Counted from the stretch's first letter, positions 1,445 through 21,289 are shown. The stretch is DNA of 64,000 bases from Alphaproteobacteria bacterium (GCA_965216395.1 OZ244156.1:1096765-1160764), one strand, 5' to 3'. Notes: a model not told the origin generated them from the sequence alone. Numbers and translations: made by a program.

Positions 1445-1780
1445 CTAAACAAGATTTGAAACCTCTGCTGTCATAAATTGTCTTAAAGTTAAATATGCGT
1501 TTTTTACTAAAAAAAGATCTCTTTGAACGTCAGGGTTTTTTCCTCCATGAAATAAATTGTTTCTAACTGAATACCAAAACTCAACCATATTACCCCAATC
1601 ATTAAGCGATAATACTTCACCTTTTTGAATACTATTTTCTTGATTGGGTTGATCACCTGAACTATTCCACCATTTATCAATTTGCTGGTCATCCATGTCA
1701 TGTGAACTATTGTGTAGTGGCTTAGATTTAAGTTCAGAGATAATTTCAGTCCAAGTATCTTTCAAAAAATCATCTTCCAA
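1445..1780 (-). CDS. HEPN-like C-terminal half of a split gene (Rx4H motif)
   Basis: Contains EFWYSVRNNLFHGGKN, i.e. the R-x4-H HEPN signature in a helical context. There is no ATG start (the track start is TTG) and no SD. It overlaps the upstream ORF by 19 nt in the -1 frame at an A7 tract. Confidence 0.55.
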   Translation of the reverse strand: MEDDFLKDTWTEIISELKSKPLHNSSHDMDDQQIDKWWNSSGDQPNQENSIQKGEVLSLNDWGNMVEFWYSVRNNLFHGGKNPDVQRDLFLVKNAYLTLRQFMTAEVSNLV

Positions 1781-2184
1781 TATTTTTTTATGTAAGATTC
1801 TTGTCGCACAGTATCTTTTTTAAGGCATTGTATAACCTTCCGATCATTACTTTGATCAAGATACAGGTTATTTTTAATATGTGCGATAAATGAAAGATAT
1901 TCAAAAACAAATTTAGAGAAATAATCACCCTCACTTGCTTTTTCATGCCAGGCTATAATCAAAGGAGTATAACTTCTTAACTCATCGGAAATCATTTGAA
2001 CAACTTTGTTACACCTCTTACAATAATATTCCACTATACCAATATTCCACGCGCCGTAATCTCCAGACATTTCAGAGGCAATATAATCAGCCATCTGACC
2101 ATCTGTTGCATTATCATCAAGATCAGCCATTTCTTCACGTCGATCTATTTTAACAAGCCGCCTATGGCACAGATCACATTTCAT
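1762..2184 (-). CDS. Zn-ribbon-like N-terminal half of the split HEPN gene
   Basis: CDLC (residues 3-6) and CKRC (about residues 55-58) form a CxxC...CxxC pair. The ATG abuts the stop of the upstream 272-aa gene (TGA ATG). It ends in a stop just after an A_AAA_AAA heptamer. Confidence 0.5.
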   Translation of the reverse strand: MKCDLCHRRLVKIDRREEMADLDDNATDGQMADYIASEMSGDYGAWNIGIVEYYCKRCNKVVQMISDELRSYTPLIIAWHEKASEGDYFSKFVFEYLSFIAHIKNNLYLDQSNDRKVIQCLKKDTVRQESYIKKYWKMIF

Positions 2185-3003
2185 TCAAAACAAACTTGGC
2201 TGTAACGCTATTGGTGGGTGAAAAGTTCCAATAATAACATAGGGGTTTCGCGCTCTCCTTATATGCCACTCCCTCGTAGTTCCAAGAAAGAAATAAAGAT
2301 CTTTTTTAAGAGCAAAATCATCAAAATATTTCTCTTTTACTTTTTTAGAAGCGGCATCTGGTGTTGATTTTTTTAAGCAATTCCAATAAAGAGAACCAAC
2401 TTCCCAGTCCTCAATCATCAATGTACTTCTTTCACCAAGATCATCTTCAAATATATACGAGAATTTCTTAGGTAGCTTTGGCATCATTTTAAAGTCTTCT
2501 ATATTCTGATCTTCAAACAGACTGCCCTGCTTTAGTTGACTTAAAATGCCATTTACCTTGTGCTGAGGCCACTCTGGGTCAGCGTCTTCTATTATAAAAT
2601 CAACAATTTTAGATGGCTTAAATACGGCTAATGATATTTTATCTTTATGTGCTAGTGATATTATTTCTTTTTTATTAGTATAAACTTTTGTCTTTTCTAA
2701 AACTATTTTTTTTCTATCTTCCCACTCACGTGATGTACCTATTTTCTGAAGTAGTTTTATTTCTTGAGTATTAGGAACACGATAGCTTTCTGGCCTAGGG
2801 TCCCCCTTATTTTTCTCAACATCCACTTCAATCCATTGATACTTTGAATAGCGTTTATCTTCTTTAAGTAATCTAAAAGGTATTGGATAAAGCCTTATCC
2901 AAGAACCATCCTCTCTAAAGCCTGCCGTACAAGCAAGTTCTTTATACTTTTCTGAGATAGTAGGATAAGTTTTAACGGTAATTAAAACACGTTCTTTTAG
3001 CAT
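2185..3003 (-). CDS. Conserved hypothetical protein (272 aa), middle gene of the three-gene operon
   Basis: Long ORF with no competing frame. It is 14 nt downstream of the DUF488 gene and directly abuts the ZnR-HEPN gene. I could assign no catalytic motif. The N-terminus is LITVKTYPTISEKYKELACTAGFREDGSWIRLYPIPFR. Confidence 0.6.
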   Translation of the reverse strand: MLKERVLITVKTYPTISEKYKELACTAGFREDGSWIRLYPIPFRLLKEDKRYSKYQWIEVDVEKNKGDPRPESYRVPNTQEIKLLQKIGTSREWEDRKKIVLEKTKVYTNKKEIISLAHKDKISLAVFKPSKIVDFIIEDADPEWPQHKVNGILSQLKQGSLFEDQNIEDFKMMPKLPKKFSYIFEDDLGERSTLMIEDWEVGSLYWNCLKKSTPDAASKKVKEKYFDDFALKKDLYFFLGTTREWHIRRARNPYVIIGTFHPPIALQPSLF

Positions 3004-3017
3004 TATTTATCCTCAAT

Positions 3018-3938
3018 CTATATGTGATTAATTTTATAATCCCATTCAGGTCGATTGGATATTGCTTTAGCAACACGTCCTCTATGACACATACAATGGT
3101 CTGCTTCGAAACAAGTAATTGCAATACGTTTGTGTTTTTGAAAAATAGCTACAAGCTTATCTAAAGCATCTTCATTATCTCTAAGCGTCGTTTTCTCATA
3201 GTCATCAAAAAGACGGTTATAATCAGATTGCGTTTTTAGCTCTTGCCTTTTGTCTGAGACAATTCCTAGTTCTGGTATATGAATATATTCAATACCTAAT
3301 TTTTTAAGAGTCTCAGAAAGTGTAGTCTTAGAAAACCCATATTTGCGACTTAAAGGATTTTTCCTAACATCACACAAAACTTTAACATTATTTTTGATTA
3401 GGCGATTCAAGTAATTTTCAAAGGATTGACCCTCATAACCTATCGTGAAAAAAGCGTGACTTTCATCTACCGGCTTACTATTTTCAATAACAGATAATTC
3501 TTTATCTGACATCAAATCTTGAGAAATTTCACTGTTAATTGCGTAATAAGGGTAATTACGATAAATTTCTTTAATTAGATTTTCGCCACAAATATTTTTA
3601 TATTTATCTTTAAATAAAATAATCTTTTTCTTATCGTCGTTAGATACTTGATCAATATAGTTAGTATTTTCTTCAGCTAAACACCAGTTATCTTCTGGCA
3701 AGATAGCTCCAACCTCAGTTAAACGACGTCGATCTGCATAAGATTGAAATGAAAAACAGCCAAATCGGTAAGGAACAAACTCGTAGCTTTTATCTTTCTG
3801 ACAAATCTCTGTATACAAAAATAAATATTTTTGTAAATCCAAGCTAGATAAACGTCCCCCAAAAGCTTCTAACAAGGCTAGTAGTAGTTTTTGACGACCA
3901 AATAATGATTTTTTCTTCTTAATGCTCATGACAATCAC
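3018..3938 (-). CDS. DUF488-domain fusion protein (N-terminal wHTH/Panacea-like module plus C-terminal DUF488)
   Basis: The C-terminal ~150 aa (FFTIGYEGQSFENYLNRLIKNNVKVLCDVRKNPLSRKYGFSK...GIEYIHIPELG...RIAITCFEADHCMCHRGRVA) follow the DUF488/YeaO-like pattern (TIGH/Y ... DVR ... C-E ... CHR). The N-terminal part (LQKYLFLYTEI...YEFVPYRFGCFSFQSY) loosely resembles DUF4065/SocA-type antitoxin domains; this part is low confidence. Confidence 0.7.
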   Translation of the reverse strand: MIVMSIKKKKSLFGRQKLLLALLEAFGGRLSSLDLQKYLFLYTEICQKDKSYEFVPYRFGCFSFQSYADRRRLTEVGAILPEDNWCLAEENTNYIDQVSNDDKKKIILFKDKYKNICGENLIKEIYRNYPYYAINSEISQDLMSDKELSVIENSKPVDESHAFFTIGYEGQSFENYLNRLIKNNVKVLCDVRKNPLSRKYGFSKTTLSETLKKLGIEYIHIPELGIVSDKRQELKTQSDYNRLFDDYEKTTLRDNEDALDKLVAIFQKHKRIAITCFEADHCMCHRGRVAKAISNRPEWDYKINHI

Positions 3939-4022
3939 AATAGTAAGTTAACTTGTGTTTGTAAAAGGTTAAGTTATTAGCTTAATCAGTAGTTAAATAG
4001 TATTCTATACTTACAAAGTATA

Positions 4023-7000
4023 TTATATATTCTCTTCAATAAGTTTTATTTCATCAGGAGTGAGGTCAAACACTTTGTAAACAGCGTTGTTTAAATCACT
4101 TTCAATAGAGATAATATTATTTGATAATTCAGAAATTGCTTTGCGTTTTTCAGTAAGATATTCCTCCCATTCATCGCGTTGTTTAAGACTAAGCTCTTTC
4201 TTAAAAACTTTTTTAATCTGTTTTTGAAACTCTTTAAAACTCAACTCCCACCATGATTTCAGACTATTATTGAGTTTGTATTCTGTGTCGTCAGGTGCAA
4301 AATCATGGATACGGTTACGTACTTGTTCTTGCAATTCATAGCGCTTCTCTGCAGCAATTTGGGCATTTTCTGCCAAATTTTCGATATTATTTTTTTGTTT
4401 ATTTGTAGCATTAGGGATAGGTAATTTATTTATATAAACAGGTTTTGCTTCTAAATACCCACCTTGCCTTATAATTGCCATATCCTTTAAAACGAACCAA
4501 AGAACATTTGAATTTAATAAGCCGCATACATAATGGCTTGCTCCTGATAATATAGGAGATGGGGCATTAATATAATATTTCTTGTTGTCATAGGAAAACT
4601 GTGGTTTAGATTGCAAATTCCCCCATATAATTTTGGGCTTTTCAAATTCCGTGTGATATGCAACCGTATCTTGAATTTCATACCATTTGTAAGTCCCTGA
4701 CTTCCTACCTATCCATTTTTTGTCAGTTGGCCAATCTTTAGGTTTGGGCATTAGCCTTTCTTTGTGTTTTTCAAGGTATTCTTTAATTGCTGGATATTTT
4801 TCAATATCTATATTTCTCTTAGTAAAAATTAAATAGAGTTTACGAGGTTCTGAAACCCATTTTTTTAAGTCTTTTCCTTCAAGAAAGGGGTGAATAATAT
4901 CATTCGAATTATGGTCTTTTTCAACCAAATTTTTCTTTACTTGAGATGAAATCAAGAAAACATCATTGCACCCTGTAACAACGCCTCTGTATACCAATGG
5001 ATAAATAGTTTCTAGTTTTTGAGATTTCTTTTGAATTTTATAAATTAGCTCTTTTGTGAGTTCACTTTGCAGATTCCATTGATTTTCGTTAAACCATTCT
5101 TGAGGCATGGTTTTTGAACGTTCATTAAAAAGCTTAGAAATATCGTCCTCTGGTTTTTCAGTTATTTTTAAAAATTCTATTTTATGATCTTTCATCGGTA
5201 TTGCATTATCAATCACAAAGATCGCTGGATAAGTTGTTACACCTTCAAATAACTGCACATCTCCAAAGTCTATAATAGTATCTATCTTTGATTTTTTGCT
5301 TAAATACTTGCGTAAATTTTCTCCACTCCCTGTCTTAAAAAAAGTAGCGGAACTGATATATCCCAAACGCCCGATATTAGGTTTTAATATACGCAAACCG
5401 AGTTCAAAAAAATAACTATATAAATCTGCCACGCCATTATAAACCTCATAGCGTTTTTCAAGATACGGTTTCATAGGAGAAATTAATTCTTGCCGGACGT
5501 AAGGTGGGTTTCCTAATACAACATCAAAACCACCGTCCGCGAAGACATCGGAAAATGCCTCTTTCCATGAAAATGCTTGATAAGAATAGTTAGAGTCTTC
5601 AATCACGCTATCACCAACACGCAAATTATCATCTAAGGAATTTAAAACTTTTCCACGCTGGGCTGTTTTTAACCATAAGGAAAGTTTAGTTATTTCTATA
5701 GACTCAGCGTTTACATCAACACCGTATAGGTTGTTATTTAGTATCTCCTTATTAAGGTCGAATACGTCGCGAGTACCGCCTCGTAAATCCGCAATTCGTT
5801 GATTAACACGTTCATATTCAGCATGAAGGTAATCAAAGGCCGCAACTAAGAATGCACCAGAGCCACATGCAGGGTCAACAACACGAATGTTCTTTAATGT
5901 ATCTTGATATGCTCTCCAAAACTTCAGTTCGGCTGCCTTGGATTTCCATTTAACAAGAGGTTGCCCTACAGTCACACCTGCAGTAAAATATTGCCTGCTC
6001 CCTTTTGTAATAAACTCTACCATTAAAAGATTGCGGCGTTTTTCTATATATTCGCCTAAGGTTTTCTCTACGATAAAACGTGTTATTGAGTTGGGGGTAT
6101 AGACAACACCCTCCTTCTTCTTTTTACCGTCTTTTTTCTTAAGACTTAAATCTCCAAACTCTTTTAATGCCTCTATGTCAGAAATGGATTGCTCAAAAAT
6201 ATGACCTAGTATTGTAACACTAACTTCACTTTGAAAATCATACGCACCAATTTTGTTAAAACCTTGAAAAATGCTATCTGGTAATTTTAAACTATCTATT
6301 ATTTTGTTAGGCGCAAATAAACCGCCATTATATTTGGGTATATTAAGAGATTTGTTTCCCTTATCTATAAAAGTGAAAAGTGCCTTAAAATTTTCCCAAA
6401 TAGGTTTGGGATTGTATTTGTCTTTATGCCTATAAGCTTCGTTCAAACTATCTTCAGGAAGAAGTCCCTTATCTTCAGCAAAAGCAATAAACAAAATACG
6501 ATCTAAAATTAACTGTGCATAGCCAACAGCATCTTGAAATATAATAGTTGGATTATTATCTGTAATTGCATGAATCAGGTTATGGCGAATTACCTTATAA
6601 TCCTGATAAAGGCGATCAGTAATCTCTTTATCCTGTTTTTCAGACTGTTTTAACCACTCATAAGTTTGACCACCAAGCAAATTATCTTTGTTAAGAAGTA
6701 AGTAAAAACGTTTGTACTCTTCTGGTTCACTTAGTAGGTCAAGTGAAAAACGCTCATAATTTTGCCTACCATAACCTACGGCATATAAACGTATTTCCAA
6801 ATAATTAGAAATAATAACCCACTTAGCCCCTTTAGCATCCATAGCATAATCCCATGCTTGTTGCACTGGAGTTTTATTGCGGCCTGACATGATAGCGTCT
6901 AAAGATGTTTTTGCCCCTTTGAGCTCAAATGGTGCAAGACATGAGTTTTTCTCTGGTAAGTTTGGGTCAATAAAACTTCCTAATGCTAGGTCAACACGTG

Positions 7001-7247
7001 TTCCAGCTATTGGGTATTCTACAGCAACATCATAATTGCCTGATGTTGATCCGAATGGTTTATACCCTAATACTTGGGTAACAATATTTTCTGTAAAAAT
7101 ACCATGTAAAGAAGTTTCCTTTTGAAGATAGATACTGCCATCTTTAATTGAGTTGGCCCAATTTTCTAGTATTTTCAAATGACCCGATGGGATTTCTATT
7201 GGCTGTTTAAGTAATTTATTTATTACTTTTGGATGAAAAAGTTCCAT
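4023..7247 (-). CDS. Type IIG restriction-modification enzyme (single-chain PD-(D/E)xK nuclease, gamma-class N6-adenine methyltransferase and TaqI-like specificity domain)
   Basis: 1074 aa. N-terminal VDLALG...APFELKGAK (D...ExK). Methyltransferase motif I VVDPACGSGAFLVAAF and motif IV VLGNPPYV. The C-terminal region with WYEIQD...KIIWGNL is typical of Eco57I/MmeI-like target-recognition domains. Confidence 0.85.
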   Translation of the reverse strand: MELFHPKVINKLLKQPIEIPSGHLKILENWANSIKDGSIYLQKETSLHGIFTENIVTQVLGYKPFGSTSGNYDVAVEYPIAGTRVDLALGSFIDPNLPEKNSCLAPFELKGAKTSLDAIMSGRNKTPVQQAWDYAMDAKGAKWVIISNYLEIRLYAVGYGRQNYERFSLDLLSEPEEYKRFYLLLNKDNLLGGQTYEWLKQSEKQDKEITDRLYQDYKVIRHNLIHAITDNNPTIIFQDAVGYAQLILDRILFIAFAEDKGLLPEDSLNEAYRHKDKYNPKPIWENFKALFTFIDKGNKSLNIPKYNGGLFAPNKIIDSLKLPDSIFQGFNKIGAYDFQSEVSVTILGHIFEQSISDIEALKEFGDLSLKKKDGKKKKEGVVYTPNSITRFIVEKTLGEYIEKRRNLLMVEFITKGSRQYFTAGVTVGQPLVKWKSKAAELKFWRAYQDTLKNIRVVDPACGSGAFLVAAFDYLHAEYERVNQRIADLRGGTRDVFDLNKEILNNNLYGVDVNAESIEITKLSLWLKTAQRGKVLNSLDDNLRVGDSVIEDSNYSYQAFSWKEAFSDVFADGGFDVVLGNPPYVRQELISPMKPYLEKRYEVYNGVADLYSYFFELGLRILKPNIGRLGYISSATFFKTGSGENLRKYLSKKSKIDTIIDFGDVQLFEGVTTYPAIFVIDNAIPMKDHKIEFLKITEKPEDDISKLFNERSKTMPQEWFNENQWNLQSELTKELIYKIQKKSQKLETIYPLVYRGVVTGCNDVFLISSQVKKNLVEKDHNSNDIIHPFLEGKDLKKWVSEPRKLYLIFTKRNIDIEKYPAIKEYLEKHKERLMPKPKDWPTDKKWIGRKSGTYKWYEIQDTVAYHTEFEKPKIIWGNLQSKPQFSYDNKKYYINAPSPILSGASHYVCGLLNSNVLWFVLKDMAIIRQGGYLEAKPVYINKLPIPNATNKQKNNIENLAENAQIAAEKRYELQEQVRNRIHDFAPDDTEYKLNNSLKSWWELSFKEFQKQIKKVFKKELSLKQRDEWEEYLTEKRKAISELSNNIISIESDLNNAVYKVFDLTPDEIKLIEENI

Positions 7248-7318
7248 AATTTTCCTAAAAAATTTTAATATTCCTAAAATAATAAAAGCATTAATCTAGT
7301 AATACTTATATCTATAAT

Positions 7319-9676
7319 TTACGCTGACTTTACTTCTGGCTCCTGTAAAGAAGCACTATCATTAATGGTTTCAGAGTCCTCACCCATCATTTTTTTATAA
7401 TGTTCATGAAATTCAGTTTGTTTAAATACACTTTCAAAATATCCTATGAACTTTTCAACATCAACTTCTTTCAAATCCGTATAATTGACTGCATCAGAAT
7501 ATGATTCTTTATTTACGTACCTTTCAAAAATTGAAAAAACAACATCATCCTCTGTGTCTCTTAATTTTTCAAACGCCTTTGATAACTTATTTTGACAATG
7601 AATAAAGTTAAAATAATGCTCTAGAATATTTCTCATTGCATTCGGTAAAATAACTGGTGATGCTTTATTGTTTTTAACATCTTTAATTACTTGCCAATAG
7701 GATTCATAATTATTTTGAATTTGTGATCTATTTATTTTTTCAATTATAGACCGTTTTCCCTTTATAACTCTATAAGTAGCACATTTTTTACCTAACTCAT
7801 TTCCTGTATTTCTTTCTATTTGAGCAAACATTTCATGTAAAAAATATAAATGATGTGTAAGTACTATAACCTGCCCATAAACTTTATCTTTAGAAAAAAA
7901 GATTTTTTTAATTAGGCAAGAAATATCAAAAACATGGTTAAATGAAAGACTAGATATTGGGTCATCTATTACAATAACACGATCTTCAATTGAAACTTTT
8001 GTATCAGCATCTGTTACCCCCATACAACTCTGAACAAAATACAAAAAAGAGATAAGTGTTTTTTCTCCTTCACTAAGTGAATGAAAAACGTTTTTCCCTG
8101 TATCCGTACGAGTTAATCGATAAAAAGTAATACTATCAATCACCTCTTTTTCAAAAGAAAACCCACTAAGGCCTATTAATTTAAGAGTTTTATCAATCCA
8201 TATTACAGCTTCATCTACATTTTTAGTTTCATTTTGAAACTTTTGAATTATTGCATCTTCACTTTTTAAAACTTCTTCTAATTCTTTGATTTTAAAAATT
8301 AAAGGTTTTTGATCAAAAGTATTTTTTTCTTTAGCAGTGTTGAAATCAGTAATTGTTTTATCAGCTAATTTTCTTATTAAGCACCAAAATTCATTTTTAA
8401 TTTCATCTTTAAATAATTTACTATCTTTGAGTTTATTATTGAAAGCTATATGTTCAGCATTTATAGCTGCAATAGTATTATTAATAAAAGTTATTTTATT
8501 TTCTGTTGAAATTAATTCAACAATAGTATTTGGGGCAGATATTTTTGAATTAATCTTTCTATTATTACTCTCAAGAATAATCCTTAAATTCTTACATTCT
8601 TCTTTTAAATTTTTATTAGACATTAAAATGTCAGAACTATCATAAGAATCTAGTATTACTAGCAAGTCTTCAGCTTTTAAATTGTATGATTTTTCTAAGC
8701 TTTTTAATTGCTCGATTTTAAATTGATATTGAGTATCAATATGAGATTTTATTTTGTCTTTTAAATCAATACTTAAATCCCTATAACAAAAAGGGCAGTC
8801 ATCCGTTTTATCAAGATATTTATCTATCCCTTCATTAAGCCAATTCTCATGCTCTAATTGATCTATTAAACCAGACAAATAGCCATCTTTAGAACTAGCA
8901 ATAATTTCTTTGAAGAGGATATTATTCTCAAATTCAGAAAAGCCTGTTTCTAGTAAAGAGAAAATTTCCTTCTCAGTTGAAGAACCATCAGAAAGTTCTG
9001 CATACTCAACAGCTATACTGTTAATTTTATCTGGTATTTTTTCTATTTCTAATTCATGTATATTAGAGCTAACCACCTTGTCTTTAAATTTTTTTGCAGG
9101 CACGAGGTAACCCGTCATACATTCTTTTAAAGATTGTGTAGTTTCATACATTTTTTTGAATTTATATACTTCATCTATAAGTTTTTTTTCTAATAATTTT
9201 TGTTCTTGACCTAGTGCTAGTAATTTTTCATCAAGTGGTTTTTTTTCTGCTGTGACAACTTCTTTTCGTTGATTGGCTTCTGAAATAGCTTCTATAGCTT
9301 TTTTATTGGTTTCATCCAGAGTAAAAATACCTTTTTGTTTATCTTCAGTATAAAAAGTGTCCTTCACGTAATCTTCATTATAAACCAAAGATTCAAGCGG
9401 TTTTTTAGGGGATGACAAAGTAACATTACAATCTTCATAACCCTCACGGTTTTGATCAGCCAACAGCCTAGAAATTGTTGTTTTCCCAGAACCATTAAGA
9501 CCATAAATAAAATTATATTTTTTAAGTGCTAACGATTCAGGCTCAGTAAAGCTTGTTACTTTTGAAATTGTTATGCTTTTTACTGGGTGTGAAGACGGAA
9601 CAACACTTTGAACCTTAGACTTAATACTTTTTATGACACCCGACATTTCAACCTCTATTATATTATCGTTATACAA
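7319..9676 (-). CDS. RloC/PrrC-family AAA_13 ATPase, putative tRNA anticodon nuclease with a coiled-coil/zinc-hook insert
   Basis: 785 aa. Walker A YGLNGSGKTT. A long Lys/Glu-rich coiled-coil insert carries CPFC (DDCPFCYRDL) near its middle. Walker B VIVIDDPISSLSFNH. The C-terminal LPNAMRNILEHYFNFIH resembles the PrrC/RloC nuclease-domain R..E..H region. It lies immediately upstream of an R-M gene, as prrC and rloC do. Confidence 0.75.
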   Translation of the reverse strand: MYNDNIIEVEMSGVIKSIKSKVQSVVPSSHPVKSITISKVTSFTEPESLALKKYNFIYGLNGSGKTTISRLLADQNREGYEDCNVTLSSPKKPLESLVYNEDYVKDTFYTEDKQKGIFTLDETNKKAIEAISEANQRKEVVTAEKKPLDEKLLALGQEQKLLEKKLIDEVYKFKKMYETTQSLKECMTGYLVPAKKFKDKVVSSNIHELEIEKIPDKINSIAVEYAELSDGSSTEKEIFSLLETGFSEFENNILFKEIIASSKDGYLSGLIDQLEHENWLNEGIDKYLDKTDDCPFCYRDLSIDLKDKIKSHIDTQYQFKIEQLKSLEKSYNLKAEDLLVILDSYDSSDILMSNKNLKEECKNLRIILESNNRKINSKISAPNTIVELISTENKITFINNTIAAINAEHIAFNNKLKDSKLFKDEIKNEFWCLIRKLADKTITDFNTAKEKNTFDQKPLIFKIKELEEVLKSEDAIIQKFQNETKNVDEAVIWIDKTLKLIGLSGFSFEKEVIDSITFYRLTRTDTGKNVFHSLSEGEKTLISFLYFVQSCMGVTDADTKVSIEDRVIVIDDPISSLSFNHVFDISCLIKKIFFSKDKVYGQVIVLTHHLYFLHEMFAQIERNTGNELGKKCATYRVIKGKRSIIEKINRSQIQNNYESYWQVIKDVKNNKASPVILPNAMRNILEHYFNFIHCQNKLSKAFEKLRDTEDDVVFSIFERYVNKESYSDAVNYTDLKEVDVEKFIGYFESVFKQTEFHEHYKKMMGEDSETINDSASLQEPEVKSA

Positions 9677-9806
9677 TAATATTGCTCTTATAAAAAATCA
9701 AACCATATAAAAAGTAGTTTCTGAGCCTAAACTCTTCAATTTTATAAAATATGCATTATTAATCATAAAAGTTTTAAATATTCTTTCCGCTTGCTATCCC
9801 TGCTAA

Positions 9807-9996
9807 CCCAAGCTAACGTTTGGGTGTGAATGCATTCGTGCATTCGCCGGGGCTTTAGAACCCTGCTTTAAGCGGCTGACATCAGCCGCAATGATGTCGT
9901 CTTTCGGTCTTATGACCGGGAGGCGACGGTGTATGTCCAAGCCTTGCGGTTAAAGATCGTCGCGGTTGTCTTAAAGCAACTTCTAAACTCCCGGTC
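9807..9996 (+). ncRNA. Candidate structured RNA or cis-regulatory leader upstream of the GIY-YIG gene
   Basis: GC-rich patch in an AT-rich spacer: I count 33/60 G+C in 9841-9900 versus 12/60 in 9721-9780. Hairpins: CCCAA/TTGGG (9807-9824), GAATGC/GCATTC (9828-9845), GCGGCTG-ACAT-CAGCCGC (9872-9889). Long-range helix GACCGGGAG (9914-9922) with CTCCCGGTC (9988-9996), stacked on GCGACG (9923-9928) with CGTCGC (9958-9963). Confidence 0.35.
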
Positions 9997-10024
9997 ACCA
10001 GGCAAAATGCCTTGGTGACCTTTT
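9993..10024 (+). terminator. Rho-independent terminator or attenuator hairpin directly before the GIY-YIG start codon
   Basis: GGTCACCAGGC-AAAAT-GCCTTGGTGACC (one bulged T) followed by TTTT. Its 5' arm shares GGTC (9993-9996) with the 3' arm of the long-range helix, so the two structures partly exclude each other. SD GAAAGG and the ATG at 10041 follow. Confidence 0.6.
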
Positions 10025-10040
10025 AGTTTGAAAGGCAACC

Positions 10041-10859
10041 ATGATTACACTGGAACAAATTTTAAATTCACAAAGCACAATACTTGAAGATGCTAAAGTC
10101 AAAGTCGTTCGCCATAAAGATAGTCGAACCGAATACCGCGATATTTTAAAAGACCGTGAACAACTGCTTGAATATCAAATGGGGCAGAAAAACCATGTTT
10201 TTAAAGATTGCGATTACATTATTTCTTTTATTGGACTAGAGCGAAAACGATCTCTTTTCATTGGTGTGTTTAAAGTTGGTGATTATAACAAAGCACCAGA
10301 CAATCACCGTTATAATCATTTATATGACTTAACCCCTGTCCCTGAATTTAAACATCTTGAAGATCGGCTTATTATCGATTGGGGCAACAATGCTATTTCT
10401 TGGCATCAGTGGTATGACAAACAACCCAAAGGGGTGATTGAAATTCTGCCCCAAGGATATATTGGCAACTTCCCTGGCCTGCTCAACTTCACCCTTGAAT
10501 TTGATGAACTTAAAAAACTAACCAATAACCCTGATGCTAATTTTGATTGGAAGAACCACCTATCATCGGTCAATGGTGTTTATATGATTTTAGATACTTT
10601 GACAGGACAACAATATATTGGATCAGCTAATGGTAAAAATGGGATTTGGCAAAGATGGTGTGAGTATGCAATTAACTATACAGGTGGTAATAAAGAGCTT
10701 ATCCAATTAATCAAACAAGACGCAAACCATCACAAGAATTTCAGGTTTTCGATTTTACAAACTTTGCCTAGCAACATCACTCAAAAAGAAATTGTTGCCA
10801 TCGAAAATCTTTACAAACAAAAATTAGGCTCAAAAGCGCATGGCTTGAATAACAATTAA
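10041..10859 (+). CDS. GIY-YIG nuclease-domain protein with an uncharacterised N-terminal domain
   Basis: The C-terminal ~90 aa read VNGVYMILDTLTGQQYIGSANGKNGIWQRW...ENLYKQKLG (GIY...YIG...R...E/N pattern). The N-terminal ~180 aa are unassigned. Confidence 0.75.
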   Translation: MITLEQILNSQSTILEDAKVKVVRHKDSRTEYRDILKDREQLLEYQMGQKNHVFKDCDYIISFIGLERKRSLFIGVFKVGDYNKAPDNHRYNHLYDLTPVPEFKHLEDRLIIDWGNNAISWHQWYDKQPKGVIEILPQGYIGNFPGLLNFTLEFDELKKLTNNPDANFDWKNHLSSVNGVYMILDTLTGQQYIGSANGKNGIWQRWCEYAINYTGGNKELIQLIKQDANHHKNFRFSILQTLPSNITQKEIVAIENLYKQKLGSKAHGLNNN

Positions 10860-11178: not shown

Positions 11179-12501
11179 ATGACTAAACCAAATAAACAAC
11201 ATGACCCACAAATTACATGGGTCGATGCTGGCACCCTCACCCCTTATATTAACAACGCTAAAAAACACCCTGAAAAACAAATACACCAGATTGCCGAGAG
11301 CATAAAACAGTTTGGCTTTATCAATCCAATATTGGTTGATGACAAAAATATTGTCATTGCAGGTCATGGTCGACTTGAAGCAGCTAAACTGATTGGTATG
11401 GCGGAAGTGCCTGTTATTTTGATCAGCCATTTAAGTGAAGAAGAAGCACGCGCCTATCGCTTGGCTGATAATCAGCTGACCATGAATACGGGATATGATG
11501 ACGGGTTATTAAAAATTGAGCTTACTGAACTCAACGCGCTTGATTTGGACTTTGAATTAGAAATCACCGGATTTGAAACCGCAACACTTGACCTGATCAT
11601 TGATCAATCCAATATGGCCGACAATGATGAGGCTGATGAGCTACCCGATATTGATGACAACACTGTGCCTGTTACTCAGCTTGGTGATATCTGGCAGCTC
11701 GGTGATCATCGTCTTATTTGCGGTGATGCAACACAAGCAGAGACCTATCAAAAACTGATGGGCGATGATGACAAGGCGCAAGCGATTTTCACAGACCCAC
11801 CATATAATGTACCCGTTGATGGTCATGTTTGCGGTGCTGGTAAAATCAAGCATCGTGAGTTTGCCATGGCATCAGGCGAAATGACCCGCGATGAGTTTCT
11901 CACCTTCCTTTCATCTTTCATCAAGATGTCGATTGAGCACAGCGTCGACGGATCACTCCATTATATTTGTATGGACTGGCGCCATATTCGGGATCTGATT
12001 GAAAGCAGTGACGGCCTGTACAGCGATCTCAAGAACATCTGCGTCTGGAATAAAGACAATGGTGGTATGGGGTCGCTCTATCGATCAAAGCATGAGTTCG
12101 TCGCCGTCTTTAAAAACGGCACAGCGCCCCACACCAACAATATCAAACTTGGCAAGCACGGACGCTATCGTACAAATGTTTGGGATTACAAAGGTGTGAA
12201 CAGTTTTGGCTCAAACCAAGCTGATCTAAAAATGCACCCAACCGTCAAACCAGTCGCAATGGTCAGTGATGCCATTAAGGATTGTACCAAACGTGAACAA
12301 AGCGTCCTTGACCCCTTCTCCGGTTCAGGAACAACACTGATGGCCTGTGAAAAATCGGGTCGGCATGCGCGCTGCATTGAGCTGGATCCAATCTATTGCG
12401 ATGTCATCATCAAGCGTTGGCAGGATTTAACCGGCCTGGATGCTGTTCACAGTGTCACTGGCAAAACATTTACTGAAATTAAGGAAGACGACCATGAGTA
12501 A
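11179..12501 (+). CDS. ParB-like nuclease domain fused to an N6/N4 DNA methyltransferase
   Basis: The N-terminus (NPILVDDKNIVIAGHGRLEAAKLIG) is ParB/Srx-like. The centre has IFTDPPYNV (motif IV). The C-terminus has VLDPFSGSGTTLMACE (motif I). This is beta-class permuted order, typical of phage/GTA ParB-methyltransferase fusions. Confidence 0.85.
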   Translation: MTKPNKQHDPQITWVDAGTLTPYINNAKKHPEKQIHQIAESIKQFGFINPILVDDKNIVIAGHGRLEAAKLIGMAEVPVILISHLSEEEARAYRLADNQLTMNTGYDDGLLKIELTELNALDLDFELEITGFETATLDLIIDQSNMADNDEADELPDIDDNTVPVTQLGDIWQLGDHRLICGDATQAETYQKLMGDDDKAQAIFTDPPYNVPVDGHVCGAGKIKHREFAMASGEMTRDEFLTFLSSFIKMSIEHSVDGSLHYICMDWRHIRDLIESSDGLYSDLKNICVWNKDNGGMGSLYRSKHEFVAVFKNGTAPHTNNIKLGKHGRYRTNVWDYKGVNSFGSNQADLKMHPTVKPVAMVSDAIKDCTKREQSVLDPFSGSGTTLMACEKSGRHARCIELDPIYCDVIIKRWQDLTGLDAVHSVTGKTFTEIKEDDHE

Positions 12502-12883
12502 TAATGACAATAACGACGATTATGACGTTGGCTACGGTAAGCCACCCAAAAACACGCGCTTTGGTGCAAAGGATGGCAATCCAAGAAATCAAAAAGGACG
12601 ACCAAAAATACCAAACACTTTGGAAGAAGAAGCTCAGGCTGTTTTTAAAGCAAAAATAGGCATCACTCTTAATGGCAGGAAGACCAAAATTTCAAGGCGT
12701 CAGGCACTCATGGAAGTAATTGTTAATGGCGCCATTAACGGTGATGCACGCATGATGCGCCTAGCCATCCCGTTGTCCAAACTCGCTGACAACGCTCCTG
12801 AGATGGAAGTCCTCCCTGAAGATGAGATGGCACTCAAACGCTTATTAGAAAACATGAGCGATAATGGTGATGGTCATGAATAA
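12494..12883 (+). CDS. DUF5681-type small basic protein (terminase small-subunit-like)
   Basis: The ATG at 12494 overlaps the upstream stop (ATGAGTAA). VGYGKPPKNTRFGAKDGNPRNQKGRPK is the hallmark N-terminus of DUF5681 proteins, which sit upstream of terL in alphaproteobacterial phage-like elements. Confidence 0.55.
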   Translation: MSNNDNNDDYDVGYGKPPKNTRFGAKDGNPRNQKGRPKIPNTLEEEAQAVFKAKIGITLNGRKTKISRRQALMEVIVNGAINGDARMMRLAIPLSKLADNAPEMEVLPEDEMALKRLLENMSDNGDGHE

Positions 12884-14000
12884 TATTACAAACATTATCG
12901 ATATGTACCGCTATGATTTTCGAAGTTATATTGGTTTTTCTTATCGTACGCTACACCCCTATGAGCATCTTCAAGATAATTGGCACATTGATCTCTTAGC
13001 CGGTCATATCGAAGCGCTTGTTAAAAATGGAGAAAAACGACTTATTATTAATCTACCGCCACGCACACTCAAATCACATTGTGTGAGCGTGGCATTGACC
13101 ACATGGCTCTTGGGGCGTGATCCATCAACAAAAATTCTCTGTCTTCATGGCAGTGATGTTTTAGGACGCGATCTGCATGATGCTTCCAGACAACTTATGA
13201 TGCATCCAAGATACCGCGCCCTGTTTCCAGGAACAGTCATTCATGATAACAATAGAAAGATTCAAACGACATTTGGTGGTAAACGATTATTTTTACCCTT
13301 CATGAAAAATCTAACGGGGCTTGGCGCTGATTATATCATCATTGATGATCCCATCAGTGCAACAGATGCTCAAAATGATTCAATGCGCGATGCTGTTAAC
13401 AGACAGTTTGACCGTAATATTATTCAGCGCCTGAATCATAAATCATCTGGTATTATTATCGTTGTGATGCAACGCCTACATGAGCATGATCTGACAGGGC
13501 ACTTGCTGAGTAAGAAAATAGGCTTTCACCATCTCAATATTCCAGCTATTGCCATGGAAGACACAATTTGGAAATTGCCTCATAACAAAACCTATCAATG
13601 GCGTAAGGGTGAAGCGCTTCATAAAACACGCGAACCGCGCGAAGAACTTATCAAGACGCTACACTTAATTGGTGGATATGCTTTTGCTCATCAATATTTA
13701 CAAGGGTTATATAAGCCACATTTTGGCGAAAATGAGAAAGGTGCAATCTGGTTAAGCCCAGCGCGTGAGGGAGAATTTTATGATTTTCGAACCAATACCA
13801 ATCCACATGGATTTTATCATATTAGTGAAGAACATCTGATCACAGCAAAAGTGTTTGGTATTGGCGAAGACCCCTATCCTGATAATATGCGCTATAAACT
13901 AACCTTGGAAGAAGTTCTCGAACAAGCTAGGCTTCATCGTGAAAAACACCTTGAAGAAGAACGATTACGAATTGAGGCAGAAAACAAAGAATCTGGTTAA
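12864..14000 (+). CDS. Terminase large-subunit-like ATPase that appears to lack the C-terminal nuclease domain
   Basis: Walker A-like LPPRTLKS and Walker B DYIIIDDP, then VVMQRLHEHDLTGHLL and AHQYLQG, as in TerL ATPase domains. It is only 378 aa and ends in a charged coiled-coil tail (EEERLRIEAENKESG), not an RNase H-like nuclease fold. Confidence 0.65.
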   Translation: MVMVMNNITNIIDMYRYDFRSYIGFSYRTLHPYEHLQDNWHIDLLAGHIEALVKNGEKRLIINLPPRTLKSHCVSVALTTWLLGRDPSTKILCLHGSDVLGRDLHDASRQLMMHPRYRALFPGTVIHDNNRKIQTTFGGKRLFLPFMKNLTGLGADYIIIDDPISATDAQNDSMRDAVNRQFDRNIIQRLNHKSSGIIIVVMQRLHEHDLTGHLLSKKIGFHHLNIPAIAMEDTIWKLPHNKTYQWRKGEALHKTREPREELIKTLHLIGGYAFAHQYLQGLYKPHFGENEKGAIWLSPAREGEFYDFRTNTNPHGFYHISEEHLITAKVFGIGEDPYPDNMRYKLTLEEVLEQARLHREKHLEEERLRIEAENKESG

Positions 14001-14005
14001 ATTGA

Positions 14006-14563
14006 TTGGACTTCCCCCTCAAGGTAAGCGTTACTGTTGGTGTTGCAACAACGAGAGACACTATCATGCCAAGACAATATTTGAACATTTCAACAGCCCC
14101 CCTATATAAAGTCAGCGATATCCCCGTCGATAAGGCGCTCAAACAGATTAAGAAGCTTCAAGGTCAACCACTGCGCCAAACTTATATTAAGATCTGCGGC
14201 CAAGACGGTGTTCTTCGGGTCAAGAATAATAAAGATTTACTACAAAGGCGCCTCTATCAAAATGTTCAAAAACGCCATTTGGGCGGCTTATCAACTAAAC
14301 ATTACAATACACTCTATCGCCTTGTGAGAGACACCTCTCCTGACCGGAAACCCTCTGTTAAAAATAAGTATAACCTATCAGAAGGGTCTGTTTTAAAACG
14401 CACATGGCAAGAACGTGAACATCAGGTTCGCGTTACTGATAAGGGCTTTAATTATCAGGGGCAAACCTACGTTTCACTTAGTCGCATTGCTAAAATCATT
14501 ACAGGTCATGAGCGCTCTGGCCCGGCTTTTTTTGGGCTTAAACAACGCGAGCAAGCATCATGA
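14006..14563 (+). CDS. DUF2924-domain protein (recombinase-associated)
   Basis: The C-terminal GSVLKRTWQEREHQVRVTDKGFNYQGQTYVSLSRIAKIITGHERSGPAFFGL fits the DUF2924 pattern. It overlaps the serine recombinase start by 4 nt. The true start may be the ATG at 14066. Confidence 0.6.
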   Translation: MDFPLKVSVTVGVATTRDTIMPRQYLNISTAPLYKVSDIPVDKALKQIKKLQGQPLRQTYIKICGQDGVLRVKNNKDLLQRRLYQNVQKRHLGGLSTKHYNTLYRLVRDTSPDRKPSVKNKYNLSEGSVLKRTWQEREHQVRVTDKGFNYQGQTYVSLSRIAKIITGHERSGPAFFGLKQREQAS

Positions 14564-16269
14564 CGGCAGAAAACAAAAAATTACGCTGCGCGGTCTACAC
14601 CCGCAAATCAAGCGAAGAAGGTTTAGATCAGGAATTCAATTCACTTGATGCACAGCGCATTGCTGGGGAAGCATATATCCAAAGCCAACAGCATGAAGGC
14701 TGGACGCTTGTTAAAACCGCATATGACGATGGTGGATATAGCGGCGGCAATATCGAACGACCCGGATTAAAAAAGCTTATCTCTGATATTAAACAGCGCA
14801 AGGTTGATGTTGTGGTGGTTTACAAAATTGATCGCCTCACCCGTTCCCTGATGGATTTTTCGAGAATTGTTGAAATCTTTGACGCATACAATGTCAGCTT
14901 TGTTAGCGTCACGCAAAGTTTTAACACCACGACCTCTATGGGACGACTAACACTCAACGTCCTGCTCTCCTTTGCCCAGTTTGAACGTGAAGTCACCGGT
15001 GAGCGTATTCGCGATAAAATCAAAGCGAGCAAGCAAAAAGGAATTTGGATGGGCGGTCGCCCTCCCTTTGGTTACGATGTTGTCAATCGCAAGCTCATTA
15101 TTAATGAAAAAGAAGCCGAACAAATACATTATATATATGAGCAATATTTAAAGAAAAACTCCTGTCATAAAATATTAGTTGATCTGAACACGAAAGGCAT
15201 CACTCAAAAATCTTGGGTCACGCAAAAAGGCAAAGCCATCACTGGCAAGCCGTTTACAACCACTACCATCTACAATCTTCTTAAAAATCCGATTTATCTG
15301 GGTAAACTCAAATATAAAGACAATATATATGATGGTGAGCATAACCCCATTATTGATCAAGATATCTGGGACAAGGTTCAGAGTAAATTGAAAAGCAGGG
15401 CTGCTAATAAGAATGGGCGCAAAAATAAAGTAGCGCCTTTTTTATTAAAAGGAAAAATCTTTGATGACGCGGGGCGCAAATATTCAACCACATACACGTC
15501 TAAAACACGAAATGGTATTAGGAAATACACACGCTACTATGTCATGCTCAAAGAAGCCAAAAAAGGCTATGTCATCAACACTCCACGCTATATTAATGCT
15601 GATGAAATCAAAGAGATTACTCACTCTCTTTTGACAGCTTGTTTAAAAGATGAACTAAGACTTCAAAAACAATGGCACGGCGTTAGTCCTAAACAGCGCG
15701 ATCAACTCTTGAAGAAAGCTATTGTCAGAGTAATGATCAGCAAGGACCAGATCAGAGCTGAGTTTGATAAAGTACAGGTCAAGCGTATTATCAATAAATA
15801 CAAAAAACAGGATATTGCTTTTATTGAGAATGCCAGAGCTAGAAAAAGAACAGTATCAAACATTGATGTTATTGATACTGAGACAAATATGTCTTGTGTT
15901 CTCAACTATGCTTACAAATCCTATAAAGGAAAAAAGATCATTACTGACACATTAGGGCGTGATATTACTGCTCATAAAACAAACAAGAACTCTGATCTGA
16001 TCAGCGCGCTTGTCACCGCCCATCAATGTCATGAACATCTCAAGAAAGGCTCAATAACAAGCATCAAAAAGCTCTCAGAAAAAATGAAACGAGACCCCTC
16101 TTACATTAGTAAAATCATCAAGCTGTATTCTCTATCGCCTAAGATCAAGGCAACCATTCTCGATGGCAATCAGCCTCGCACCACAACTGTGCAATCTCTG
16201 ATTAAAATCAGTCGGCACATTGATTGGAAAAAGCAGGAGGGCTTATTTGGGTTGATATCAAAAGCATAA
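14560..16269 (+). CDS. Large serine recombinase (resolvase/invertase N-domain, recombinase domain and Zn-ribbon/coiled-coil)
   Basis: LRCAVYTRKSSEEGLDQEFNSLDAQR (catalytic Ser region), VVVVYKIDRLTRS, FAQFEREVTGERIRD; 569 aa. Confidence 0.9.
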   Translation: MTAENKKLRCAVYTRKSSEEGLDQEFNSLDAQRIAGEAYIQSQQHEGWTLVKTAYDDGGYSGGNIERPGLKKLISDIKQRKVDVVVVYKIDRLTRSLMDFSRIVEIFDAYNVSFVSVTQSFNTTTSMGRLTLNVLLSFAQFEREVTGERIRDKIKASKQKGIWMGGRPPFGYDVVNRKLIINEKEAEQIHYIYEQYLKKNSCHKILVDLNTKGITQKSWVTQKGKAITGKPFTTTTIYNLLKNPIYLGKLKYKDNIYDGEHNPIIDQDIWDKVQSKLKSRAANKNGRKNKVAPFLLKGKIFDDAGRKYSTTYTSKTRNGIRKYTRYYVMLKEAKKGYVINTPRYINADEIKEITHSLLTACLKDELRLQKQWHGVSPKQRDQLLKKAIVRVMISKDQIRAEFDKVQVKRIINKYKKQDIAFIENARARKRTVSNIDVIDTETNMSCVLNYAYKSYKGKKIITDTLGRDITAHKTNKNSDLISALVTAHQCHEHLKKGSITSIKKLSEKMKRDPSYISKIIKLYSLSPKIKATILDGNQPRTTTVQSLIKISRHIDWKKQEGLFGLISKA

Positions 16270-21213: not shown

Positions 21214-21289
21214 TGGTGGAGCTGAGCGGGCTCGAACCGCCGACCTCTTCGCTGCCAGCGAAGCGCTCTCCCAGCTGAGCTACAGCCCC
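21214..21289 (-). tRNA. tRNA-Ala (anticodon GGC)
   Basis: Reverse complement: GGGGCTGTAGCTCAGCTGGGAGAGCGCTTCGCTGGCAGCGAAGAGGTCGGCGGTTCGAGCCCGCTCAGCTCCACCA. It folds as a cloverleaf with G3:U70, anticodon loop CTGGCAG and an encoded CCA. Confidence 0.95.

Follow-up and report, generated by a model that had tools for sequence, protein, structure and literature searches.

An RloC-family gene with Tyr at the catalytic His position beside a Type IIG restriction-modification gene: a probable nuclease-dead copy, probably without dedicated coupling to its neighbour

A stretch of 64,000 nucleotides from an Alphaproteobacteria bacterium (GCA_965216395.1 OZ244156.1:1096765-1160764), referred to below as the window, with positions counted from its first letter, carries on its minus strand a gene of the RloC family of anticodon nucleases followed by the gene for a single-chain Type IIG restriction-modification (R-M) enzyme. 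Our favored reading, to which we give a probability of about 0.6, is that the RloC-like gene is a nuclease-dead copy of its family with no dedicated coupling to the Type IIG enzyme. The most specific novelty is a Tyr (Tyr726) in place of the catalytic His, a change that should abolish tRNA cleavage by analogy with the H737A and H356A mutants of RloC and PrrC, respectively. The protein is homologous to both of these nucleases, its other motifs are intact, the linkage of its family to Type IIG genes is rare and of independent origin, and the two neighboring genes differ in composition; that they are not functionally coupled is what we infer. The genes and the residues on which the argument turns are as follows.

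7319..9646, minus strand: RloC-family gene (PADLOC PDC-S06, Pfam AAA_13), the product has an ABC head like that of Rad50, a zinc hook within a coiled coil and, at the C terminus, a nuclease domain of the PrrC/RloC type
9476..9502, minus strand: Walker A GLNGSGKTT, residues 59-67, with N, G, G and K invariant in 119 homologues
8786..8797, minus strand: CPFC zinc hook, residues 294-297, invariant, at the center of the coiled-coil insert
Residues 534-539 of the same protein: signature LSEGEK
Residues 567-573: Walker B/D-loop VIVIDDP
Residue H608: H-loop or switch His
Residues 681-689: MRNILEHYF
7619..7633, minus strand: R682-N-I-L-E686, the Arg-X3-Glu part of the triad, aligning with the R and E of PrrC LLRNLYE
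7499-7501, minus strand: TAT codon for Tyr726, one transition from CAT, at the position of PrrC H356 and Geobacillus RloC H737
7248..7318, minus strand: AT-rich spacer of 71 nt between the RloC-like and Type IIG genes, with an AGGA Shine-Dalgarno sequence before the Type IIG ATG
4023..7247, minus strand: gene for a single-chain Type IIG (MmeI-like) R-M enzyme, with Pfam and PADLOC matches and intact motifs

Davidov and Kaufmann defined RloC in 2008 by PrrC-like ABC motifs, a Rad50-like insert of coiled coil with a CXXC motif, a length between 658 and 897 aa and, near the C terminus, the triad Arg-X3-Glu-X36-52-His, whose His often follows a Ser (PMC2610378). In the Geobacillus protein, the triad is R692/E696/H737 and the hook starts from C291, and each of the substitutions R692A, E696A and H737A abolishes both the anticodon nuclease (ACNase) activity and the toxicity (PMC2610378); the equivalent H-to-A change is a null in PrrC too (H356A). 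In the protein encoded in the window, R682, E686 and S725 are present, and Y726, 40 residues after E686, occupies the position of the catalytic His. This column holds His in 342 of 343 homologues overall: in all 119 found by a word-indexed search, in 79 of the 80 species-representative genomic homologues (the exception, L059, has Pro) and in all 144 representatives, the nearest of them (61% identity) included, that were recovered when the C-terminal 289 residues were searched exhaustively against a library of 1.8 billion representatives. The top 150 matches of that last search were all PDC-S06-like, with no PrrC among them. Five genuine PrrC proteins, scoring 460-504 bits against the PADLOC PrrC model, were instead taken from a scan of 400 gammaproteobacterial genomes with that model, and the alignment of 120 homologues to these five by hhalign gave a probability of 97.5% and an E value of 6.5e-12 over residues 531-733, with R682 and E686 paired with the corresponding residues of PrrC and Y726 paired with the His of the PrrC SH motif. 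The similarity of the C-terminal region to PrrC/RloC nuclease domains, proposed in an earlier reading of the DNA made from the sequence alone (the sequence-only reading), is thereby borne out. That reading had also pointed to MRNILEHYF as the nuclease motif, which holds insofar as its R-X3-E aligns with PrrC; the stretch is only part of the triad, however, its H687 is variable, and the true position of the His is that of Tyr726.

The replacement stands out against an otherwise well-preserved protein. Of 67 columns with a conservation of 95% or more, three differ in the window protein (Q298Y, N495D and H726Y), and H726Y is the sole departure private to it. Q298Y and N495D were considered as additional damage and rejected, because both positions vary in the nearest relatives, which form the subclade of the window protein itself. 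The possibility that H687, beside E686, stands in for the lost His was likewise rejected, since homologues that keep H726 carry Y, H or N at position 687. Loss of the nuclease activity is, by analogy with the H737A and H356A mutants of the relatives, the most likely consequence of the change. Other apparent inactivations were seen in the family: the catalytic His column is Pro in Ohessyouella blattaphilus (L059:7520-7849), and the RloC-like frame is apparently split into two open reading frames in L015 (258 aa and then about 424 aa) and L071 (327 aa and then about 338 aa). Such natural inactivations fit the toxicity of these enzymes.

The longest open reading frame of the RloC-like gene extends over 7319-9676 on the minus strand, from a TTG at 9676, and encodes 785 aa; translation more likely starts from the ATG at 9646, where a GAGG Shine-Dalgarno sequence lies 6 nt upstream and the product has 775 aa, in agreement with the 775-aa database entry P0009. 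The 785-aa protein matches Pfam AAA_13 at 6e-101 (residues 45-752) and, along almost the whole of the model, PADLOC PDC-S06 (PDLC04886) at 4.1e-202 (671.8 bits; residues 33-766 aligned to positions 3-724 of the 727 in the model), while residues 497-770 are recognized by the PADLOC PrrC model at 1.7e-9. Its closest database relative is 42% identical along the full length. Motif conservation was judged in the alignment with the 119 homologues of the word-indexed search, in which the columns of the ABC motifs are invariant or nearly so and the motifs themselves are intact in the window protein. The hallmarks of RloC named by the sequence-only reading, that is, AAA_13, Walker A and B, coiled coil and CPFC, are thus all present. 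We conclude from this comparison that the 775/785-aa protein can be placed as a divergent member of the RloC/PDC-S06 branch of AAA_13.

The predicted structure is in keeping with this architecture. An AlphaFold2 model built from 120 sequences (mean predicted local distance difference test score [pLDDT], 84) consists of an ABC head, long helices surrounding the hook (residues 122-501) and a C-terminal domain made of alpha helices only, and its best fold matches in the PDB are Rad50, SMC, Lamassu LmuB and AriA. When the PDB was searched by sequence, with the protein and with a 31-sequence profile as queries, only the P-loop and coiled-coil regions gave matches (Rad50, SMC and AriA), and no RloC or PrrC structure was returned. 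Modeled in isolation (pLDDT, 80), the C-terminal domain is a six-helix bundle, for which the PDB fold search gave no significant match (best E value, 1.3). The weak matches, below significance, included the nucleotidyltransferase ANT (6un8 and 6p01), 2q00 and an ITS2 pre-rRNA processing complex (7y17_C), which we take to contain HEPN-type domains. The domain includes a RYVNKESY stretch with Tyr where the His of the HEPN Rx4-6H motif is expected. Its assignment to the HEPN class would rest on the homology to PrrC and on the published classification (PMC3710099).

Whether the RloC-like and Type IIG genes form a conserved pair was addressed from both sides. The forward survey used the alignment as query and covered 80 species-level loci with RloC-like homologues and up to 10 kb of flank each. 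A Type IIG gene lies just upstream and on the same strand in L041, L046 and L057 and 2 kb upstream in L067, which amounts to 3-4 of the 80 loci; the enzymes of L041 and L046 carry DUF7149/DUF7814 N termini and belong to another subfamily. The order found in the window, in which the RloC-like gene precedes the Type IIG gene, was seen in none of the 80 loci. The Pfam families counted among the two upstream genes were Methylase_S (7), N6_Mtase (6), N6_N4_Mtase (5), TaqI_C (3) and EcoRI methylase (1), and those among the two downstream genes were HSDR_N (8) and EcoEI_R_C (5). A PrrC-like order, hsdM-hsdS-rloC-hsdR, accounts for about 8-9 loci (e.g., L029, L030, L035, L037 and L049), and a Type III system adjoins the RloC-like gene in one (L044). 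In total, about a quarter of the loci (~23%) adjoin some R-M system, and more than 100 unrelated families make up the neighborhoods of the remainder.

On a maximum-likelihood tree, the members linked to Type IIG genes require five changes for five rows and so do not cluster. L001 and L002 are the members with which the window protein clusters (support, 100); no Type IIG gene was found around them in the sequence available, nor does one lie beside the closest metagenomic relatives of the window protein, P0013, which sits among housekeeping genes, and P0011, whose neighbor is a divergent Type I locus that includes Fic and DpnI. In the context of P0011 (L088/L089; 38% identical to the window protein), the RloC-like gene diverges from a Type I operon that holds Fic/SoFic, TIR (CAP12-PCTIR) and DpnI-like genes, in agreement with the R-M plus Fic/Doc neighborhoods described for RloC-like proteins by Anantharaman et al. 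in 2013 (PMC3710099). A separate observation concerns L032, L040 and L050 (Treponema and Melainabacteria), which form a tight clade (support, 100) and in which the RloC-like gene is always preceded by a pair of genes encoding about 462 aa and 383 aa; to judge from the Pfam families tallied upstream, the pair may consist of an N6_N4 methyltransferase and a partner. Of all R-M linkages in the tree, this one alone seems to have been inherited rather than reacquired.

The reverse survey started from the Type IIG enzyme and covered six loci around its four closest homologues plus 80 metagenomic loci; 67 of the total offered 2.3 kb or more of flanking sequence on one side. One distinct case of an adjacent AAA_13 gene was found (L093, identical to L094), or 1 of about 67 informative loci. 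There, the gene for a 67%-identical Type IIG enzyme (P0131) is followed, with overlapping stop and start codons, by that of a 758-aa AAA_13 protein, which possesses CQFC, R-X3-E and SH and is a member of a distant clade, with 34% identity over 171 residues. Taken together, the two surveys show that Type IIG adjacency is rare and that it is of independent origin each time. An R-M linkage of RloC was reported in 2008 for 8 of 72 members, with Type I and Type III systems (PMC2610378), and an affinity for R-M loci has been reported for HEPN-ABC proteins in general (PMC3710099). The affinity of RloC-like genes for R-M loci of every type is real but loose, and the Type IIG locus is one more occasional host rather than a new partnership.

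The composition of the two genes points the same way as the surveys. The RloC-like gene has a GC content of 28.0% and a third-codon-position GC content (GC3) of 17.1%, versus 34.1% and 26.2%, respectively, for the Type IIG gene and a GC content of 38% for the window, and values as low as those of the RloC-like gene point to a donor much more A/T-rich than the host. The RloC-like gene was acquired separately from its Type IIG neighbor. Relative to the island neighbors, whose GC3 is 22-32%, the 17% of the RloC-like gene is extreme. A scan of positions 3800-10100 for promoters and terminators returned no more sites than were found in shuffled sequence, and within the 71-nt spacer it found neither a terminator-like hairpin nor a promoter-like match.

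The sequence-only reading correctly described the neighbor as one 1074-aa nuclease-methyltransferase fusion, 71 nt downstream on the same strand. Residues 1-1072 match the PADLOC REase_MTase_IIG model at 1.4e-147, and the Pfam domains are Eco57I, N6_Mtase, MmeI_Mtase, MmeI_hel and TaqI_C. The PD-(D/E)XK site (D86/E108/K110), motif I (DPACGSG, 458-464) and motif IV (NPPY, 580-583) are invariant in comparison with 25 homologues, and judged by these motifs the gene appears intact. The family is very large (more than 7,500 matches), and the nearest relative is 70% identical. Around close homologues (L090-L095), the genes downstream of the Type IIG gene vary: an unknown 486-aa protein and then GmrSD follow P0129, an AAA_13/RloC-like gene and then GmrSD follow P0131 with overlapping stop and start codons, a Schlafen/AlbA_2-HATPase protein follows P0133, a HAD hydrolase follows P0130, and PDC-M19 follows in the window. 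The subfamily seems to carry interchangeable downstream cargo, as if second-line effectors could dock at the 3' side of its genes.

In characterized RloC, DNA damage or DNA ends are sensed by the ATPase and the hook, whereupon the tRNase is released and translation stops; the outcome is an abortive antiphage response. The window protein is built along the same lines, as a zinc-hooked ABC ATPase resembling Rad50 and joined to an anticodon nuclease domain of the PrrC type (putatively HEPN class), and its gene probably came to lie beside the Type IIG gene through accretion of independent cassettes in the island rather than as part of a dedicated two-gene system. The copy with Tyr726 most likely no longer cuts tRNA, and Tyr726 may be a recent null allele of a self-toxic gene, produced by a single transition.

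Several alternatives have to be set against this proposal. The sequence-only reading had suggested a new regulatory partnership, the nuclease being masked by the Type IIG enzyme as PrrC is by EcoprrI. On such a model, the RloC-like protein would be bound and held latent, and a phage anti-restriction factor hitting the Type IIG enzyme would free the tRNase. The shared strand and the short spacer without a terminator agree with this idea, as do the independent recurrence of the juxtaposition (L041, L046, L057 and L093/L094) and the proximity of about a quarter of the family to R-M genes, PrrC-like insertions between hsdS and hsdR included. The linkage is rare in both directions, however; the gene order is the opposite wherever else linkage was seen, neither survey having turned up an rloC gene followed by a Type IIG gene, the linked instances are scattered on the tree, the closest relatives of the RloC-like gene are unlinked, the two genes differ in composition, and RloC is, according to PMC3458546, regulated by its own zinc hook and DNA-dependent ATPase. 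The catalytic His is absent as well, so there may be no nuclease activity for the Type IIG enzyme to mask. Around the closest relatives of either gene, the adjacency is absent save at one locus, L093/L094, whose AAA_13 gene is of a distant clade; the masking model has no comparative support, and we regard it as improbable. It is unlikely, though less so, that the gene encodes a fully functional, autonomous RloC-type anticodon nuclease, a stand-alone PDC-S06 defense gene in which Tyr726 is either a sequencing error or tolerated. The frame is full length with all other conserved motifs intact, two of the three deviating columns out of 67 are variable in the subclade, PADLOC treats PDC-S06 as a single-gene candidate, and most homologues have no R-M neighbor; on the other hand, the near invariance of the His (342 of 343), the null phenotype of H-to-A in both PrrC and RloC, and an assembly in a single contig of 98% completeness, where substitution errors should be uncommon, speak against it.

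A nuclease-dead derivative might instead have been kept for a noncatalytic role, e.g., as a sensor of DNA ends or damage or as a decoy acting with neighboring island genes. The ATPase, hook and coiled coil are fully conserved despite the loss of the His, and HEPN domains without the catalytic motif are known as noncatalytic binding modules (PMC3710099); yet there is no clade of His-less homologues, and the other exception (L059, Pro) is unrelated, which argues for sporadic inactivation rather than a selected new function and makes the idea very improbable. A more speculative version, to which we attach hardly any credence, is that RloC-type hook ATPases are "break readers" for any type of R-M system and that the His-less copy survives because its ATPase and hook still sense or modulate DNA ends made by the adjacent Type IIG enzyme, without killing the cell. 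Returning to a nuclease-dead copy without dedicated coupling, we note that five considerations weigh against it: (i) the TAT at 7499-7501 is known from the assembly alone, and a base-calling error is possible; (ii) H-to-A is the only substitution of this His tested in RloC and PrrC, so residual or altered activity with Tyr is possible; (iii) the gene of a close Type IIG homologue (P0131, 67% identity) abuts a distant AAA_13/RloC-like gene with overlapping stop and start; (iv) a general functional tie of the RloC family with R-M enzymes is plausible, because ~23% of the homologues adjoin an R-M system; and (v) a spacer without a terminator makes cotranscription of the two genes possible.

The wider locus and the host genome provide the setting for accretion. 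The remaining features of the island and its surroundings are as follows.

3-749: truncated outer-membrane efflux gene, at the flank of the island
1445..2184, minus strand: Zn-ribbon and HEPN (RNNLFH) reading frames, broken apart by a frameshift
2185-3003, minus strand: PDC-M19B, by PADLOC/Pfam matches
3018-3938, minus strand: PDC-M19A (DUF488 fusion), by PADLOC/Pfam matches
10041..10859, plus strand: Uzume UzuA, a GIY-YIG defense gene (PADLOC, 3.3e-93), divergent from the RloC-like gene
11179-16269: module of ParB-methylase, DUF2924 and serine recombinase, at the other flank
21214-21289: tRNA-Ala gene

Apart from UzuA on the plus strand, the defense genes run along the minus strand in the first 10 kb of the window. 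PDC-M19A and PDC-M19B (2185..3938), downstream of the Type IIG gene, constitute a separate two-gene candidate defense system. A HEPN operon, which had been put forward as a second RNase layer, is represented by the frame with RNNLFH, but the HEPN gene is frameshifted and is preceded by PDC-M19. The island is best read as horizontally acquired, recombinase-bearing, situated beside tRNA-Ala and made of independent defense cassettes. The host genome is a single contig of 1.65 Mb (98% completeness), in which no second AAA_13 gene was found, and the 785-aa protein has no orthologue in any genome of its genus or family. Far from the window, which is at 1.10 Mb, the chromosome carries two further R-M loci of Type I-like makeup (N6_Mtase and Methylase_S), at about 4.9-7.0 kb and 549.8-552.0 kb, so that the genome has at least three R-M systems in total despite its small size. 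A link in trans to Type I is therefore as available to the RloC-like gene as a link in cis to the Type IIG enzyme; a trans relationship with Type I systems was proposed by the authors of the work on RloC.

These results bear on the annotation of defense genes in several ways. A label from PADLOC, DefenseFinder or COG, such as "wobble nucleotide-excising tRNase," would count this gene as active although its catalytic His is gone; natural null alleles of self-toxic defense genes exist and are visible only at the level of residues. The R-M linkage of the family has been quantified, with ~10% of members inside Type I operons, ~5% beside Type IIG genes and about a quarter beside any R-M system, which extends the figure of 2008 and indicates that Type IIG adjacency arises again and again without ever being passed on as a unit. 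The idea of a new regulatory partnership, attractive though it is, lacks support and can be set aside. If the Tyr is real and the protein still functional, the copy would offer a handle for separating the sensing of RloC from its killing.

Finally, the locus can be compared with known systems, for which purpose the comparison with Geobacillus RloC rests on published residue numbers, the family alignment and the genuine PrrC proteins. RloC cleaves tRNA in the anticodon loop with excision of the wobble nucleotide, and its activity is Zn responsive. The window protein falls within the size range published for the RloC proteins of Geobacillus kaustophilus, Acinetobacter baylyi and Campylobacter jejuni (rloC) and shares with them an ABC ATPase split by a coiled coil with a central CXXC (C294 here and C291 in Geobacillus), the R-X3-E at 682/686 (692/696 in Geobacillus) with Ser-X 40 residues on (726 here and 737 in Geobacillus), and an R-M linkage that is sporadic rather than obligatory (Davidov and Kaufmann 2008, PMC2610378; Klaiman et al. 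2012, PMC3458546). It differs from them in having Tyr for the catalytic His and in that the neighboring R-M gene is of Type IIG, not Type I or III. PDC-S06, a single-gene defense candidate defined computationally by PADLOC, is the best model and a full-length match, and a literature search found no experimental test of it. The 1074-aa protein shares with the MmeI family of Type IIG/IIL enzymes an N-terminal PD-(D/E)XK nuclease, the MmeI helical spacer, a gamma-class N6-adenine methyltransferase with NPPY and TaqI_C, all on one chain; with a closest homologue of 70% identity, it can be placed in that family by sequence. With PrrC of the E. coli EcoprrI Type Ic locus, the RloC-like protein shares a homologous ATPase C-lobe and nuclease domain and the R-X3-E...SH layout; whereas PrrC has about 370-400 aa or, in a broader range, about 340-416 aa, lacks the coiled coil and hook and is always located inside a Type Ic hsd operon, the protein described here is twice the size, possesses a hook, is encoded beside a Type IIG gene and has lost the His.

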